Of a stretch of DNA of 32,000 nucleotides, positions 2,662 through 10,533 are shown piece after piece (positions within the stretch are counted from its first letter, which is position 1; each line of letters opens with the position of its first letter). Source of the DNA: Phycisphaera mikurensis NBRC 102666. Lineage in GTDB: Bacteria; Planctomycetota; Phycisphaerae; Phycisphaerales; Phycisphaeraceae. Below the pieces are notes generated by a model. That model had not been told where the DNA came from. It ran no database searches and worked only from the letters and a program-made list of their open reading frames with translations. The DNA lies in contig NC_017080.1 of the NCBI RefSeq assembly GCF_000284115.1, positions 2,190,001 to 2,222,000 on the forward strand, written 5' to 3'. A program made the translations under genes and the position numbers.

Positions 2662-3977
2662 TGGTGCCCGACCGGCCCGAGGGCGTGGTGCTGGACCGTG
2701 CGGCGGACGCCCCGTGGGTCGGCCTCGACGAGCTGTGCCCGACTCCGGGCCTCGTCGTCCTCGTCCCGCACCCCGACGACGAAAGCCTCGGCTGCGGGCT
2801 GGCGCTCGCCGCGGCCGCGGCCGCCGGGCGGCGGATCACGCTCGTCCTGCTGACCGACGGCGAGGGCTCGCACCCCGGCTCGGCCACGCACCCGCCGGAG
2901 GTGCTGGCCCGGCTCCGGCGGGCGGAGTTGGACGAGGCCATCGACGCGCTCTGCCCGGACGAAGCTCCGCGGGTGGTCCGCCTCGGCCTGCCCGACGGCC
3001 GCTGCACCGCCGACGACGCCCTCGCCCACCTCGACGCCGCCCGGGCGTTGCTCGACGACGCCGCGCCCGCCACCGTCTGGACCACCTGGAGCGGGGACCC
3101 GCACTGCGACCACGAAGCCGCCGCCGCCCTCGCCGAAGCCCTCGCCGCGGATCCCGCGGTGGCCGTCTGGAGCTACGCCGTGTGGGGCCGCTTCGGCCCC
3201 GCCCGCGCCTCCACCCCCGGCCTCCGCCGCTTCGCGTGCGACGAGATGCGGCCGCGGAAGCGTGCCGCCGCCGGTGCCCACCGCTCGCAGCTCACCCCGC
3301 TGATCGCGGACGCCCCCGACGCCTTCCTCATGCCCGAGGCGTTGACCGAGCACTTCCTCGCGGCGCCCGAGCTGTTCCTCCCCGGCACCGGCCGGCCCGC
3401 CGACCGCCGCGCCACCTTCGACGCGTTGCACGCCGGCGACGCCGACCACTGGTCCGTCACCACCAGCGGGTACGAGCGCCAGAAGCGGGCCGTCACGCTG
3501 GCCGCTCTCCCGCGGCCCGGCTACGCCCGCGCCCTGGAGGCCGGCTGCGGCATCGGGGTCCTCACCGCCGAGCTGGCCCCCCGCTGCGGCGAACTGCTCG
3601 CCCTGGACGTCTCGCCGAACGCCGTGGAACGGGCGAGGGTTCGGCTTGCGCGTCACGGGCACGTCCGCGTCGGGGTGGCCGAGCTGCCCGCAGGATGGCC
3701 CGCCGGGACGTTCGACCTGATCGTCCTCTCCGAGCTGCTCTACTTCTTGAGCGCCGACGAGGTCGCGGACCTCTCCGTCCGCGCCGCCGCCGCCCTGGCA
3801 CCCGACGGCGTCTGCTTGCTGGTGAACTGGACCGGCCCCAACGACCTCCCCCTCGATGGCGACGCCGCGGCCGGAGCCTTCCGCGACGCGGCCGGCACGC
3901 GGTGGCACGTCCTGCGGGCCGACCGCCACGAGGGCTTCCGCCTCGACCTGCTGCGGGCGGCAACCCGCGGCGGCTGA
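2661..3977 (+). CDS. Fusion protein: N-terminal PIG-L/LmbE-family N-acetylglucosaminyl deacetylase plus C-terminal NodS-like SAM-dependent methyltransferase (438 aa)
   Basis: GTG 2661 overlaps the upstream TAG (TAGTG). The N-terminal half has the LmbE signatures VLVPHPDDESLG and GDPHCDHEAA. The C-terminal half (from about nt 3400) has SAM motif I LEAGCGIGVLT. It also has a NodS-like context: YERQKRAVTL..., LALDVSPNAVERAR, FDLIVLSELLYFL. One uninterrupted frame joins the two halves. Confidence 0.8.
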   Translation: MVPDRPEGVVLDRAADAPWVGLDELCPTPGLVVLVPHPDDESLGCGLALAAAAAAGRRITLVLLTDGEGSHPGSATHPPEVLARLRRAELDEAIDALCPDEAPRVVRLGLPDGRCTADDALAHLDAARALLDDAAPATVWTTWSGDPHCDHEAAAALAEALAADPAVAVWSYAVWGRFGPARASTPGLRRFACDEMRPRKRAAAGAHRSQLTPLIADAPDAFLMPEALTEHFLAAPELFLPGTGRPADRRATFDALHAGDADHWSVTTSGYERQKRAVTLAALPRPGYARALEAGCGIGVLTAELAPRCGELLALDVSPNAVERARVRLARHGHVRVGVAELPAGWPAGTFDLIVLSELLYFLSADEVADLSVRAAAALAPDGVCLLVNWTGPNDLPLDGDAAAGAFRDAAGTRWHVLRADRHEGFRLDLLRAATRGG

Positions 3978-4034
3978 TGCGGACGCCCGCGCGGCCGCCC
4001 GGGGGACTGCCGCCCGGGCGAACGGAGGCGTGCG

Positions 4035-4080
4035 CCGCGGACCGCGGCGTTTCGGCGCGTCCGCGGCCGGCGGTCCGCGG
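4035..4080. repeat. REP-like 46-bp palindromic element, locus A (CCGCGGACCGCGG-N20-CGGCGGTCCGCGG; right arm 12/13)
   Basis: Read directly. The left arm 4035-4047 is embedded in a 17-bp perfect palindrome, CGCCGCGGACCGCGGCG (4033-4049). The spacer is cgtttcggcgcgtccgcggc. The element ends 35 bp upstream of the korA ATG. Confidence 0.85.
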
Positions 4081-4114
4081 CGCCGGGGCCGCTGGATCCC
4101 CTAGCTTGGCCGCG

Positions 4115-6193: not shown

Positions 6194-6853
6194 GTGATCA
6201 AGTTCCGCTGCATCGCGTGCTCGAAGAAGGTCGGCGTCTCCGACGCCGCCGCCGGCAAGCGGGCCCGCTGCCCGCAGTGCTCGACGGTGATGCGGGTGCC
6301 GGTGCCCGAGCGGGTGGTCGAGGCGGATCTCGCGCTCGCCGCGGCCGAGCCGGTGATGAAGCCCGCGATGAAGGCGGCCGCCGCCACCCCGCCGCCTCCC
6401 GAGCGGCGCCGGGCGCGGGCACCCCGGCCGCCCGGTGGCGACTTCACGGTCGCCGGCGAGGTGCTCACGGCGCCCGCGGCGGCGGGCGTCCACGAGCCGG
6501 TGGCGCAGGAGGAGCGGCGGATCCGGCAGGACGCGATGGACTCGCTCGCCGGCCTGGCGGCGGTTTCCGACGCGGCGCCGCAGATGATGAACTTCGGGTC
6601 CGGCGTGAACCCCTCGCCGAAGCGGAAGAAGCGCTCGGCGGGTCCGCGGGTGCCCACCGCGGTCCACCCCGCGTGCGGGACGTGCGGCACGACGGTCCTC
6701 GCCTCGGCCCGGTTCTGCACGGCGTGCGGGGCGGCGCTCAAGGTGCCGGACCTGCCGGTGGACAACAACCCGATTGCGCTGCCGATGACGGTCCGCCCGC
6801 CCGCTTCGGGGTGGAAGGCGGGGTTCTGGGGCTGGCTGCTCGGCGCCCGCTGA
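6194..6853 (+). CDS. Hypothetical double zinc-ribbon protein with a low-complexity linker and Trp-rich C-terminal tail (219 aa from GTG 6194; the longest ORF starts at GTG 6086)
   Basis: There are two CxxC...CxxC ribbons: FRCIACSKKVGVSDAAAGKRARCPQCS and HPACGTCGTTVLASARFCTACG. The tail is GWKAGFWGWLLGAR. GC3 rises sharply only after GTG 6194, so I prefer that start. Confidence 0.55.
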   Translation: MIKFRCIACSKKVGVSDAAAGKRARCPQCSTVMRVPVPERVVEADLALAAAEPVMKPAMKAAAATPPPPERRRARAPRPPGGDFTVAGEVLTAPAAAGVHEPVAQEERRIRQDAMDSLAGLAAVSDAAPQMMNFGSGVNPSPKRKKRSAGPRVPTAVHPACGTCGTTVLASARFCTACGAALKVPDLPVDNNPIALPMTVRPPASGWKAGFWGWLLGAR

Positions 6854-6895
6854 GGCCGATCCCAAGCGATCCACGGGCGTCCGCTGATGCACCGG

Positions 6896-7004
6896 CCTGG
6901 GTGCCACGCCCCTTGGGGGGTGCCTGGGTGCCACGCCCCTTGGGGGGTGCCTGGGTGCCACGCCCCTTGGGGGGGTGCCTGGGTGCCACGCCCCTTGGGG
7001 GGTG
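6896..7004. repeat. Tandem direct repeat, 4 copies of a 27-bp unit CCTGGGTGCCACGCCCCTTGGGGGGTG (the third copy is 28 bp with one extra G)
   Basis: Copies read directly at 6896-6922, 6923-6949, 6950-6977 and 6978-7004. They are otherwise identical. The array is intergenic, between convergent genes ending at 6853 (+) and 7080 (-). Confidence 0.95.
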
Positions 7005-7079
7005 GCCGCGTCGCGATCACCTCTCGCACTCGCCACCCCGCAAGCGGCGTGGCACCCGAGAATCGTTTCTCCGGCGGCT

Positions 7080-7490
7080 TCAGCGCGGGCGCTTCGCGGC
7101 GCGGCCGTGCTTCTTCCAGTAGCGGCTGAAGCTCCGCAGGTCGGCGGGCGGCACGGCCTCGTCGACGAACGCGGGCGGGCGGGTTCGCTCCACCTCGATC
7201 GACTCCGCGAGCACCTCCCGCTGCCGGCGCAGGCGCGGGTCGGCCGCGTCGACCGTGCGGACCACGCCGGCCCCGTGTTCGGCCGCGAAGGCCAGCACCT
7301 CCCCGACGACCTCGCCCCGCCGCACCTCCACCCCGGGCATCGCCTCCAGGCACTCGGCCATGAACACCAGCCGCTTGAGCGAGAGGCCGGCGTCGCGGAT
7401 CCACGCCTCGTCGAAGACGAAGACGGCGGGCTCGCCCTTACGGAGCCAGCGCTCCGAGAGCATCGCGTCGTGGACCCACAGCACGCTCAA
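7080..7490 (-). CDS. Stand-alone photolyase/cryptochrome N-terminal alpha/beta-domain-like protein (about 134-136 aa)
   Basis: The start is TTG 7490 (overlapping the upstream TGA 7487-7489) or GTG 7484; an ATG lies at 7463. The sequence LWVHDAMLSERW..PAVFVFDEAWI..SLKRLVFMAECLEAM..VEVRRGEVVGEVLAFAAEHGAGVVRT...LRSFSRYWKK is colinear with the strand/helix pattern of the N-terminal domain of PhrB-type photolyases. The part of the track ORF above 7490 overlaps the upstream gene and is Arg/Pro junk. Confidence 0.6.
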   Translation of the reverse strand: MSVLWVHDAMLSERWLRKGEPAVFVFDEAWIRDAGLSLKRLVFMAECLEAMPGVEVRRGEVVGEVLAFAAEHGAGVVRTVDAADPRLRRQREVLAESIEVERTRPPAFVDEAVPPADLRSFSRYWKKHGRAAKRPR

Positions 7491-8269
7491 GCGAACAGCT
7501 CCGCGGCGAGCTCTTCGGTGGAGCGGTCGAAGGGGTTGCGCTTCCTCCCGCCCCCGCGGGTGGTGGTGCCGTCGAAGACCCCGTTGGAGACGGCCGCCAG
7601 GCCGCCGGCGTTGAACAGGTACGGCTTGCTGCTGAAGGTGCTCGCGACCCACTGCCAGGAGAGGTGGTTGCTGCCCAGGTCGCCGTCGACGAGGTGGGCG
7701 TGCATCCACTCCGCCCCGGCGTGCCAGTGCACCCGACGGAAGTGGACCACGTAGGCGGCGAGCTTCATCCGCTGCTGGTTGTGCAGCCAGCCCGTGTCGT
7801 GGAGCTCGGCGACCCAGGCGTCGACGAAGTCGGTGCCGGTCTCGGCGGCGAGCACGTCCGGCGGCATCTCCGGGGCGTAGTCCTCCTCATCGAGCCCGGT
7901 CTTCCAGCTCCGGAGGCTCTCGTGGACTCGCTCGCCCTCGTGGGCGAGCACCCGCTGGAAGTAGTCGCGCCAGCCCAGCTCGGAGACGAGCTTGTCCGCC
8001 CCGCCGGGGCTCTTGGCGAGCACCGCGTCGCGGACCTCCGCCAGCTCCAGCACGCCGTGGCGGAGGTACATCGACAGCTTCGTGACCTCGCCGCCGATCC
8101 GGTTCCGCGTTCGGGCGTACGGGCCCGGCTTCACCGCCGCGAGCCGCCGCGCCGCCTCGGCCGGATCGCCCCGATGCGGGCTCACGGCGTCGCCGATCGC
8201 CGCGGCGGCGGGGAAGGCCTCGGCGTACGCCGCCACCAGCTCGTCGCGGGATCCGAAGTCGCGGGGCAT
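7487..8269 (-). CDS. Photolyase/cryptochrome FAD-binding (helical) domain protein lacking the N-terminal alpha/beta domain (260 aa)
   Basis: ATG 8269. Motifs are VTKLSMYLRHGVL, SELGWRDYFQRV, TGTDFVDAWVAELHDTGWLHNQQRMKLAAYVV and LVDGDLGSNHLSWQWVAS. These match the FAD_binding_7 core of DNA photolyases. The region upstream of 8269 in the track ORF is low-complexity. Confidence 0.8.
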   Translation of the reverse strand: MPRDFGSRDELVAAYAEAFPAAAAIGDAVSPHRGDPAEAARRLAAVKPGPYARTRNRIGGEVTKLSMYLRHGVLELAEVRDAVLAKSPGGADKLVSELGWRDYFQRVLAHEGERVHESLRSWKTGLDEEDYAPEMPPDVLAAETGTDFVDAWVAELHDTGWLHNQQRMKLAAYVVHFRRVHWHAGAEWMHAHLVDGDLGSNHLSWQWVASTFSSKPYLFNAGGLAAVSNGVFDGTTTRGGGRKRNPFDRSTEELAAELFA

Positions 8270-8423
8270 CACCGGCACGCACCACGCTACGCGGGAGGAC
8301 CCGCCGGGGCCGGGCTTCCGACGCCTCCGGATGCGGGCTCGTCCGGCGTCGTCAGGCGGGAGCCGCACGCCGCCGCCCGGACCGGTGTCGCTCCTCGCGG
8401 GCCGGCTCCGCGGGGCCCGCGCC

Positions 8424-9824
8424 TCACCCCGGAGCGGGAGCGAAGACGAGGCGGCACGCGAAGCGGAGCTTCGAGGCGGCTTCCTCGTCGCCGGGCGGGC
8501 CGTCGATGCGGAAAGGCTCGGCGATCGGCAGCGTCCAGGCGCCGTCCATCCGCAGGCGGGGCCGCCCGTCCTCCGCGACGAAGGCCTCGAGCTGGACGGG
8601 GACCGCGAGCGGGAGCTGGATCCCCTTCATCGTGAAGGTGCCGTGCAGCGTGAGCGGGGTGGGCCTACCGAAGGCGATCCCGCTCCCGTCGGGGGCGTCG
8701 ACGGACTCGATGACGAACGAGGATTCCGGGTGCTCGTCGACCTCCAGCACGCCGCCGTGGATCCAAGCGTCGAGGTCGTCCTCGCCCATGGTCACCGAGG
8801 CCGGGTCCGCCGCGATCCGACCGGTCATCCCGGCGAGGTCGTCGACGGAGTCCAGGGCCAGCGCGCCGGAGACGCCCGCGGCTTCGCCGGCGTAGCCGTC
8901 CAGCGGCGCCGGGAAGGCGAAGGTGACCGCGGGCCCGGCCGCGGGATCCACCACGACCTCCCAGGCGGTGGCCAGCTCCACGCCCGCGGCGTCGGCGGCG
9001 GGCGTGCCCGCGGGACGCTCGGGCAGGCCGAGCCCCATGGCGTCCCAAGCCGCCACCGGGAAGCCGGCCGGCACCGCGTCGAAGCCGTCGCCCCGGGGGG
9101 ACGCCGCCAGCTGCTCCCGCAGCTCCTCGGTCAGCGCCCGGGCAGCCGACGCGAAGGCCGCGCCCAGGCCGTCGCTCCGGGCCGGGCTCTCGAAGTTCGT
9201 CCAGACCGGCTCGTGGCAGTGGAACTGCGAGTACAGCTCGGCGGACACGGCGTAGCCCCGCTCCCCCGCGTAGGGGTAGAAGTTCGCGTACCAGAGCCGG
9301 TCGGCGCGGCCCAGCTCGACGCGATCGGCGAGCGCGAAGCCCTCCACGGCCGCGACGAAGGCCCGGGCATCCGGCGGGGCCGCCACGCGGCCGGCCCCCG
9401 GGCCCGACAGCGGCGTGATCTTCAGCGGGACGGCGATCGTCGCCCGCCCCGCCGCCTGCACCGGGAGGGCCTCCCGCACCAGCGGCGCGTCGCCCTGGGG
9501 CATCGCCCGGGCCGTACGCAGGAAGTTGGTGATGCGGTCGGGCGTCGCGTAGCGGCCCTGGTACACCGACCGCCCGCGCCAGTCCTGGAAGACGAGCAGC
9601 GGGGTGATCTTCACCTCGGCGGGCGCCTCGCCCGTCTCCGCCAGGTCGATCAGCTCGACCGGGACCCCGAGATCCCCGGCGAGCGAGCGGATCTTGGGCA
9701 GGTGATCCTCGCGGAAGGCCGCCTGCAGCGGCGAAGCACCGGAACGCACGAACACGAGCAGACGCTCCGCCGAGGCGGGCAGGCACAGCAGCGCGGCGAG
9801 GAGCGCGGTCAGCAGTCGGGGCAT
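8424..9824 (-). CDS. Secreted multidomain protein with a C-terminal YceI-like domain (466 aa)
   Basis: The signal peptide is MPRLLTALLAALLCLPASA/ERL. The C-terminal approximately 170 aa (VTFAFPAPLDGYAGEAAGVSGALAL...DDLDAWIHGGVLEVDEHPESSFVIESV...LTLHGTFTMKGIQLPLAVPV) follows the YceI beta-barrel pattern. I do not recognise the N-terminal two thirds. Confidence 0.65.
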   Translation of the reverse strand: MPRLLTALLAALLCLPASAERLLVFVRSGASPLQAAFREDHLPKIRSLAGDLGVPVELIDLAETGEAPAEVKITPLLVFQDWRGRSVYQGRYATPDRITNFLRTARAMPQGDAPLVREALPVQAAGRATIAVPLKITPLSGPGAGRVAAPPDARAFVAAVEGFALADRVELGRADRLWYANFYPYAGERGYAVSAELYSQFHCHEPVWTNFESPARSDGLGAAFASAARALTEELREQLAASPRGDGFDAVPAGFPVAAWDAMGLGLPERPAGTPAADAAGVELATAWEVVVDPAAGPAVTFAFPAPLDGYAGEAAGVSGALALDSVDDLAGMTGRIAADPASVTMGEDDLDAWIHGGVLEVDEHPESSFVIESVDAPDGSGIAFGRPTPLTLHGTFTMKGIQLPLAVPVQLEAFVAEDGRPRLRMDGAWTLPIAEPFRIDGPPGDEEAASKLRFACRLVFAPAPG

Positions 9825-9845
9825 GGCGGCTTCCGGGGGCGGCTT

Positions 9846-9891
9846 CCGCGGACCTTCGATCGTTTCCGGCGTTTTCGGCCGCGGTCCGCGG
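9846..9891. repeat. REP-like 46-bp palindromic element, locus B (left arm degenerate: CCGCGGACCTTCG-N20-CCGCGGTCCGCGG)
   Basis: Read directly. The right arm at 9879-9891 is perfect; the left arm matches 10/13. It is intergenic, 22 bp upstream of the ATG (9824) of the minus-strand gene. Confidence 0.75.
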
Positions 9892-9909
9892 CGTCCGACG
9901 GCGCCGGGG

Positions 9910-10533
9910 TCACTGCGCCTCGTAGCCGACGATCCGGACCATGACGTAGATCTTCTTCGCCACCTCCGAGCCGTCCATCTCGGGCTTGATGCCGAAGTCG
10001 GTGCGGTCGATCGTGAAGTCCGACCGCAGCACGAGCAGGTCGCCGCTGCGGTTCTTCGGGCCCCGCTCGGCGGCGCCGTCCTTCTGGATCGTGGCCTCGA
10101 TCGTGTAGGTCTTGTCCACCTCGATGCTCCCGTAGGTCATCGTGCCCTTCACCTCCAGCACGGTGGCGCCGGCGTCGGTGGTGGACACCTGCTCGACCGA
10201 CTCGAAGCTCGCGTCGAAGGTCATGCCCTCGCTGGCGGCGAGCCAGCCGTCGGAGAGCATGTGCTGGGTCATCTGCTCGTTGGTGACCTGCAGCGTGTCG
10301 GCGGCCACGGAGATGGAGCCGGAGAAGCCGCCGGGCGCGTCGGGGTCGAAGCTCACCGTGCCGGTGACGCCCTTGCCGAAGCCCACGAACGGCTCCAGCG
10401 GGGAGTCGTTGATGAAGGCGATGCCGTTGACGCCCTTGGGGTCTTCGAAGTCGTAGCGCACCTCTTCGGCGTCCGCGGCGGACGCGGGCAGGAGGAGCGA
10501 AGCGGCGAGCACGGCGAACAGCGGGCGGATCAT
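9910..10533 (-). CDS. YceI family periplasmic/secreted polyisoprenoid-binding-like protein (207 aa)
   Basis: The signal peptide is MIRPLFAVLAASLLLPASA/AD. The YceI pattern is YDFEDPKGVNGIAF...GTVSFDP...LQVTNEQMTQHMLSDGWL...LEVKGTMTYGSIEVDKTY...DFTIDRTDFGI. Confidence 0.85.
   Translation of the reverse strand: MIRPLFAVLAASLLLPASAADAEEVRYDFEDPKGVNGIAFINDSPLEPFVGFGKGVTGTVSFDPDAPGGFSGSISVAADTLQVTNEQMTQHMLSDGWLAASEGMTFDASFESVEQVSTTDAGATVLEVKGTMTYGSIEVDKTYTIEATIQKDGAAERGPKNRSGDLLVLRSDFTIDRTDFGIKPEMDGSEVAKKIYVMVRIVGYEAQ

Follow-up and report, generated by a model that had tools for sequence, protein, structure and literature searches.

Photolyases with a reversed domain order were described as NewPHL, in which the flavin adenine dinucleotide (FAD)-binding domain comes first and is followed by a Z-domain of ~150 aa; FAD is the sole chromophore, cyclobutane pyrimidine dimers (CPDs) are repaired in single-stranded DNA (ssDNA) only, and covariation puts the Z-domain at the rim of the FAD site (Emmerich 2020, NAR, PMC7736829). 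The SPL proteins belong to the same class; about one-third of them have four cysteines, and repair of CPDs is described for an iron-sulfur (Fe-S)-containing member and, in vitro, for RfSPL (Xu 2021, MBE, PMC8476157). A two-tryptophan chain was reported for both groups, both co-occur with CPD or (6-4) photolyases, and a second domain encoded by a gene of its own is mentioned in neither paper (PMC7736829, PMC8476157); the survey of Xu et al. contains one planctomycete entry (PMC8476157). In cyanobacteria, every marine Synechococcus and some Cyanobium carry the gene phr4 next to phr5, and a single merged gene, phr6, takes their place in two Cyanobium strains (Haney 2022, mBio, PMC9426592). Four conserved Fe-S cysteines were stated for all Phr4 and Phr6, (6-4) activity was predicted from the Fe-S cluster, disruption of phr4 lowered UV-C survival of Synechococcus RS9916 20-30 fold, and expression of phr4/phr5 in E. 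coli raised UV-C survival 10-20 fold; whether one chain is made by a +1 frameshift or two subunits form a heterodimer was left open (PMC9426592). Here we analyze a gene pair of this kind in the planctomycete Phycisphaera mikurensis NBRC 102666, located in a stretch of 32,000 nucleotides (hereafter the window; contig NC_017080.1, positions 2,190,001 to 2,222,000).

The pair consists of two open reading frames (ORFs), for which the coordinates within the window are given in Table 1. ORF-A (product P0001) carries the FAD-domain motifs WRDYF, TGWLHNQQRM and DGDLGSNHLSWQW, and ORF-B (product P0002) carries LWVHDAML, VFVFDEAW and FSRYWKK; neither contains an internal stop. We found both where a preliminary description of the locus, made from the sequence alone, had placed them, namely, an ORF with FAD-domain motifs followed by a second one beginning in TTGA or at a nearby GTG. 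That description took it as established that photolyases are single chains with the N-terminal domain first, a premise to which NewPHL/SPL (PMC7736829, PMC8476157) and phr4/phr5 (PMC9426592) are published exceptions. We interpret the locus, with a probability of roughly 0.8, as encoding a photolyase made of two subunits that belongs to the reversed-order (NewPHL/SPL, Phr4/Phr5) type.

Table 1. Features of the gene pair, in window positions
Feature	Position	Strand	Details
ORF-A, predicted catalytic subunit gene, phr4-like	8269..7487	minus	ATG at 8269, TGA at 7489-7487; 260 aa, no Cys
ORF-B, predicted small alpha/beta subunit gene, phr5-like (NewPHL Z-domain as a separate protein)	7490..7080	minus	136 aa
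TTGA junction, ORF-B start codon over ORF-A stop codon	7487..7490	minus	4-nt overlap, read from the sequence
GGAG, candidate Shine-Dalgarno sequence for the small subunit gene	7499..7502	minus	8 nt upstream of the TTG

For the larger ORF, the profile search that had been suggested for it gave a clear match above the cut-off to PF03441 (FAD_binding_7; E 5.8e-26), spanning residues 95-214 of 260. Sequence search of the PDB with this half returned class I CPD photolyases as the closest solved structures (E 5e-18 to 1e-16) and no NewPHL-type structure; in NCBIfam, the photolyase matches of ORF-A were all sub-threshold, and ORF-B had no match. When aligned to the E. coli photolyase 1DNP, ORF-A corresponds to the region from 1DNP residue 220 onward, with no alpha/beta domain preceding the FAD domain. 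It keeps the equivalents of E274, W277, N341, R344, M345, W359, D372, D374, N378, W382 and W384, and its N...M at positions 341/345 matches the pattern of the CPD type; in eukaryotic (6-4) photolyases, each of the two equivalents is His. In the same alignment, E takes the place of W306, the triad's third tryptophan, leaving a two-tryptophan chain. ORF-A accordingly shows the combination that characterizes NewPHL/SPL, conserved CPD active-site residues with only two of the three triad tryptophans. The early, Gly/Arg-rich end of the FAD half that had been pointed out earlier is real, and this segment stands where relatives have a three-cysteine Fe-S loop (CxxC...C).

ORF-B is homologous to the alpha/beta domain at the N-terminus of photolyases, as had been proposed, and the evidence comes from its family, its predicted fold and structure comparison. 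PF00875 is matched by 16 of the 22 members of the ORF-B family (best E 1.1e-6). The AlphaFold2 (AF2) model built on the 22-sequence alignment has a mean predicted local distance difference test (pLDDT) score of 91.3 and forms a five-strand beta-alpha-beta domain. In the PDB, its top Foldseek matches are, with few exceptions, photolyase/cryptochrome chains, including 3FY4, 6FN2, 2J07, 1OWL and 4DJA, with probability ~1.0, template modeling (TM) scores of 0.5-0.67 and E 2e-3 to 4e-2. A sequence search of the PDB with ORF-B yielded nothing meaningful, the best match being an RNA polymerase chain (E 0.003). Residues W5, H7, L38, K39, F43, E46, G59, F121, R123, Y124 and W125 are invariant in the family alignment (A1). 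The C-terminal FSRYW helix is modeled with pLDDT ~67-74 in ORF-B alone versus 88-93 in the fused model described below, a weak hint that it might be an interface element. Stand-alone small-subunit proteins of 118-193 aa are represented by 156 entries in the protein collection. The earlier label 'PhrB-type' is imprecise, given that the FAD half is nearest to class I CPD photolyases. Proteins of the FeS-BCP/PhrB type have a PF04244 N-terminal domain, four cysteines for a [4Fe-4S] cluster and a 6,7-dimethyl-8-ribityllumazine (DMRL) antenna; we rejected assignment to this type based on the lack of a PF04244 match, the lack of cysteines, and class I CPD photolyases being the best sequence relatives.

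The two ORFs are colinear with P0029, a 448-aa fused homologue: ORF-A is 52% identical to its residues 15-272 and ORF-B 42% identical to residues 307-441, and only a linker of ~34 residues is missing. Single-gene homologues equal to the merged pair, that is, Phr6-like genes, were found at 20 loci. This natural fusion served as a proxy for the complex of the window's two ORFs, and in its AF2 model (pLDDT 88.5, predicted TM score 0.90) the two domains are packed confidently. Low-confidence stretches of the model are confined to residues 1-11, 279-284 and 291-296, the latter two within the linker, so the split falls at a disordered connector between two packed domains; ORF-A ends where the disordered linker starts in the fused homologues. 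Foldseek aligned one domain only of the fused model to class I structures (~240-280 columns, TM ~0.4), which is expected for a permuted domain order and says nothing on the placement of the second domain compared to the canonical N-terminal domain.

The junction reads GAG CTG TTC GCT TGA GCG TGC TGT GG, where the TTG start and the TGA stop share TG, which places ORF-B in the -1 frame with respect to ORF-A. Public gene callers choose an alternative start, GTG at 7484-7482, which yields a 134-aa product (P0122). In two relatives with ~80% identity (L097 and L098), two genes are present with the identical 4-nt overlap, at junctions GCATGAGC (ATGA, L097) and CCGTGAGC (GTGA, L098) versus TTGA in the window; because ATG and GTG occupy the homologous position, we favor TTG at 7490 as the true start. 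GGAG or GGGAG also occurs at equal spacing in both relatives. The reading of this element as a Shine-Dalgarno sequence is nonetheless ambiguous because the same bases serve as codons for a conserved C-terminal (E/R)-L-F motif, which is present in the fused homologues too.

The pair is an intact and selected unit. Pairwise estimates of the ratio of nonsynonymous to synonymous substitution rates (dN/dS; NG86) against the ~80%-identity relatives are 0.24-0.37 for ORF-A and 0.23-0.32 for ORF-B, and both ORFs are under purifying selection. The genes are also split in G011, which belongs to the same family but another genus (59% identity), although there the junction is not an NTGA overlap. These data bear out the earlier view that the locus is not a simple pseudogene, and a lineage-specific disruption with frameshifts, which that description named as one way in which it could fail, is not seen, the split being common to relatives and both frames being under selection. 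Based on conservation in relatives and dN/dS, we rejected a pseudogene or a sequencing error. The preliminary description also proposed separate polypeptides in reversed order that are probably translationally coupled; the split and the order are upheld by conservation and by the majority form in the survey below, whereas coupling remains a supposition, drawn from the recurring NTGA overlap. The same description suggested that antenna or substrate properties may be altered.

A scan of species-representative genomes yielded at least 567 relatives of ORF-B, far more than chance would give, and we classified 82 loci, comprising the best 80 of these together with the window and G011. The FAD gene lies directly upstream of a separate small gene in 53 loci, with an NTGA overlap in 31, other tight junctions in 8 and a spacer of 13 to ~1,200 nt in 14. 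The 20 fused loci belong to Terriglobales (15), Lysobacterales (2), Anaerolineae (2) and Aphanothece (1); in 6 loci, all from Nostocales, no FAD gene lies within 3 kb of the small gene, and 3 are cut by a contig end. The split form, whose phylogenetic distribution the preliminary description had singled out as informative, is the majority among these 82 loci, but the sample is biased towards the window's small subunit, and the 53:20 ratio of split to fused is not a family-wide estimate. Relative to the first gene, the second is in frame +2 (= -1) in 42 split loci, in frame +1 in 7 and in frame 0 in 4. Two loci are intermediate between tight and unlinked arrangements, with ~1.2 kb (L035, Chloroflexota) and ~0.66 kb (L070, Coleofasciculaceae) between the subunit genes.

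Whole-genome search of five Nostocales genomes found exactly one FAD-type and one small-subunit gene in each of the five, lying either on one strand at a distance of 4.5-5.4 kb or on different contigs, and the two halves must therefore be separately expressed. That junctions differ so much between lineages speaks for two polypeptides and against frameshifting, since a start codon is kept at the overlap, all three frames occur, and the genes lie kilobases apart in some genomes. In two of the Nostocales cases, the FAD and small-subunit genes share a strand and have an insertion between them (L101/L106, G042:C2 1009460-1010248 and 1004554-1004964; L104/L108, G041:C1 6254821-6255543 and 6249005-6249412). 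Another Nostocales small-subunit homologue (L107, G043:C134:44628-45050) has one in-frame TGA and might be a broken copy or reflect a sequencing error.

In the tree of the FAD domain, built from the 72 loci with usable sequence, the window falls in an all-split clade of 10 with 100% support; besides the window, the clade contains eight planctomycete loci (including G011) and one labeled Myxococcota, and the window's neighbors in the tree are Phycisphaeraceae. The split or fused state changes at least three times on this tree, with two changes forced by well-supported branches. The four Fe-S cysteine columns, occupied by F, D, T and N in ORF-A, lack cysteine in 10/10 members of the window's clade, and all four cysteines are present in 62 of the 63 other loci.

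We searched 1.84 billion cluster representatives exhaustively with HMMER and obtained 159 clusters at E 1e-30 or better, of which 150, plus close relatives, were included in a wider tree. The best 120 protein matches to the FAD half (clusters) comprise 54 short proteins with four cysteines, 32 short without cysteines, 26 long with four cysteines, 4 long without cysteines and 4 partial sequences; some of the 'short' rows in these metagenome-derived trees may be fragments. Of the 32 short cysteine-less clusters, the first two dozen are the closest matches to the window and, where named, come mostly from Planctomycetota. A bipartition with 98% support separates 91 rows, almost all long and cysteine-free and representing the classical NewPHL type, from 59 rows that include a mixture of long and short forms, every protein with four cysteines, and the window's clade (99% support). 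Closest to this clade, with weak support, are fused cysteine-free proteins. At minimum, the cysteine state changes 7 times and the architecture 15 times; both trees are unrooted and come from quick searches, so that any direction of change is presumed rather than shown.

Among the described systems, Phr4/Phr5 comes closest: likewise, two adjacent same-strand genes, with the FAD domain first and the alpha/beta domain second, and with a colinear single-gene form in relatives. Cyanobium and freshwater Synechococcus loci (L029, L031, L032) belong to the window's family and have similarly tight junctions, and the window's clade lies on the Fe-S-rich side of the 98%-supported branch, which holds both split and fused forms. 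In contrast to the window and its whole clade, however, Phr4/Phr5 have the four Fe-S cysteines; their genes are separated by seven G-C base pairs instead of overlapping by 4 nt in the -1 frame, and their host is a cyanobacterium, not a planctomycete. The (6-4) prediction of Haney et al. is inapplicable to the window because it rests on the Fe-S cluster. NewPHL/SPL, and Prochlorococcus Phr7, share with the window a FAD domain without a preceding alpha/beta domain, followed by a second domain of ~135-150 aa related to the antenna-binding domain, and NewPHL subgroup A also lacks the Fe-S cluster. Unlike these single chains, the window encodes the second domain as a separate product past a stop codon and a frame change, and the classical fused Fe-S-less NewPHLs are on the opposite side of the 98%-supported split. 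Class I CPD photolyases (E. coli PhrB, 1DNP; Synechococcus, 1TEZ/1OWL) have the FAD- and CPD-contacting residues in common with ORF-A but show the opposite domain order in a single chain, retain W306, and possess an interdomain linker with a phosphate-binding loop and an antenna chromophore. The window pair does not fit the canonical cryptochrome/photolyase family (classes I-III, DASH, 6-4), its order being reversed and its chain split.

In the mechanism we propose, the two genes would be co-transcribed, and the TTGA overlap would couple their translation, so that the subunits are made together. ORF-A would yield a 29-kDa, all-helical, FAD-bound catalytic subunit with a CPD-type active site, in which, after photoreduction to FADH-, near-UV/blue light would drive electron transfer to a pyrimidine dimer and split it. 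The ORF-B product, a predicted Rossmann-like alpha/beta subunit of 15 kDa with homology to the domain that ordinary photolyases have at the N-terminus, might dock non-covalently on the catalytic subunit and close a side of the FAD pocket, as has been proposed for the covalently linked Z-domain of single-chain relatives. The [4Fe-4S] cluster of most Phr4/Phr6-type proteins was probably lost in the planctomycete clade. The likely substrate would be CPD lesions, probably in ssDNA, repaired alongside the class II CPD photolyase and the PhrB-like protein encoded in the same genome. We infer the translational coupling, the substrate and the light dependence of the window pair from sequence comparison.

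Several observations weigh against this interpretation. The profile search suggested for the small ORF failed to reach the threshold with the window's own sequence (PF00875, E 0.026, 14.9 bits versus a cut-off of 26.6), the Foldseek search of the PDB with the ORF-B model gave no match at E 1e-3 or better, and we infer the heterodimeric complex from fused homologues only. In ORF-A, the residue equivalent to R342 of E. coli photolyase is Q, and loss of the Fe-S cluster could accompany a changed function. The pair is also rare in its phylum: of 401 Planctomycetota genomes drawn evenly, one has the small-subunit gene (the window's genome, G000) and two have a NewPHL-type FAD domain (G000 and G049); therefore, the pair is dispensable and was probably acquired horizontally. 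Furthermore, the gain in survival of E. coli from phr4/phr5 did not differ significantly between light and dark (PMC9426592), so that even for the cyanobacterial pair the status of a classical photolyase is unproven. This last result, along with the missing Fe-S cluster, the R342 substitution and the presence of two other family members in the genome, would be compatible with a true heterodimer that is no repair enzyme but a cryptochrome-like light or redox sensor, a role that Xu et al. raised for SPLs (PMC8476157), or else a light-independent repair factor. We consider this unlikely, given that the full set of CPD active-site residues (E274, W277, N341, M345, W384) and the N378 equivalent are kept and that NewPHL and RfSPL repair CPDs in vitro (PMC7736829, PMC8476157).

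The other alternatives concern the junction rather than the function. Recoding by a frameshift at the end of ORF-A could produce one fused, Phr6-like chain, as the existence of colinear fused homologues and the precisely kept 7-bp spacer of marine Synechococcus, for which Haney et al. suggest a +1 frameshift (PMC9426592), would allow. Yet the window ORF-B is in the -1 frame, not +1, no slippery heptamer of the X XXY YYZ type precedes the stop (GAG CTG TTC GCT TGA), and the window, L097 and L098 all have a start codon (TTG, ATG or GTG) at the same position. Across the family, moreover, the second gene occurs in all three frames, behind spacers of up to ~1,200 nt or kilobases away, which no single frameshift mechanism fits, and we regard recoding as quite improbable. 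Still less credible is the idea that a frameshift or an assembly error recently disrupted what had been a fused gene and that ORF-B is no longer made. The two frames do differ by one base at the domain boundary, and the window ORF-B starts with a weak TTG; nevertheless, the split is shared by relatives at 80% and 59% identity and by all 10 members of the fully supported clade, ORF-B is as constrained as ORF-A, both frames are free of stops, and the assembly is 99.97% complete, in 2 contigs.

Taking the locus as a two-subunit reversed-order photolyase, the two-gene arrangement itself is already published as phr4/phr5 (Haney 2022, PMC9426592); what is new in the window is the Planctomycetota host, the Fe-S-free split clade and the -1 overlap junction. 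It appears likely that the mostly planctomycete clade of 10 (among the loci examined) joins split reversed order with the absence of Fe-S, a combination previously undescribed, and represents the smallest two-subunit photolyase, that the junction survey settles the question of Haney et al. in favor of two polypeptides, and that fission and fusion recur at the disordered linker. With this locus, the range of the phr4/phr5-type two-gene photolyase comes to include Planctomycetota, a finding of modest importance. The Fe-S-free clade works, or at least is kept by selection, and could be a natural control for the role of the cluster in this class, and the junction data, which bear on the published question of one frameshifted chain or two subunits, favor two subunits. 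A naturally split photolyase would also make the contribution of the second domain to flavin sealing, stability and DNA binding addressable, the parts being expressible apart without engineering.

In a set of 41 relatives at family and order level, which counts the window's genome, an orthologue is present in G000 and G011 only, and the remaining relatives have canonical photolyases (E 1e-14 to 1e-22). Elsewhere, the window's genome encodes a class II CPD photolyase (TIGR00591, E 5e-125) along with a PhrB-like protein of 520 aa, which fits the published co-occurrence of NewPHL/SPL with CPD or (6-4) photolyases. The class II photolyase lies in a 762-aa open frame (L096, G000:C1:493261-496728), the upstream part of which consists of ASPLLRF/ASPLPRF repeats; this suggests that the stretch just upstream of the gene is a tandem DNA repeat and not coding. 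In G049, a plus-strand locus (L110, C38:53500-60500) contains a four-Cys PhrB-like gene at ~1300-2826, followed directly, at ~2830-4100, by a classical single-chain NewPHL, in which the second domain is of a divergent 'W ... GVFF' type that was not detected with the window's small subunit.

Directly upstream of the pair, on the same (minus) strand, two secreted YceI-like genes occupy window positions 8424-10533, with a 154-nt gap to ORF-A. In the ~80%-identity relatives, the upstream neighbor is a divergent DUF2254 gene, so the YceI linkage is not conserved. Consensus scans for promoters and terminators in window positions 6800-8700 found no match on either strand. Downstream, 75 nt beyond the small subunit gene, four tandem copies of a 27-bp repeat, GCCTGGGTGCCACGCCCCTTGGGGGGT (97% matches, window positions 6895-7004), form an array that sits between convergent genes and contains a C4-TT-G6 mini-palindrome in every unit.

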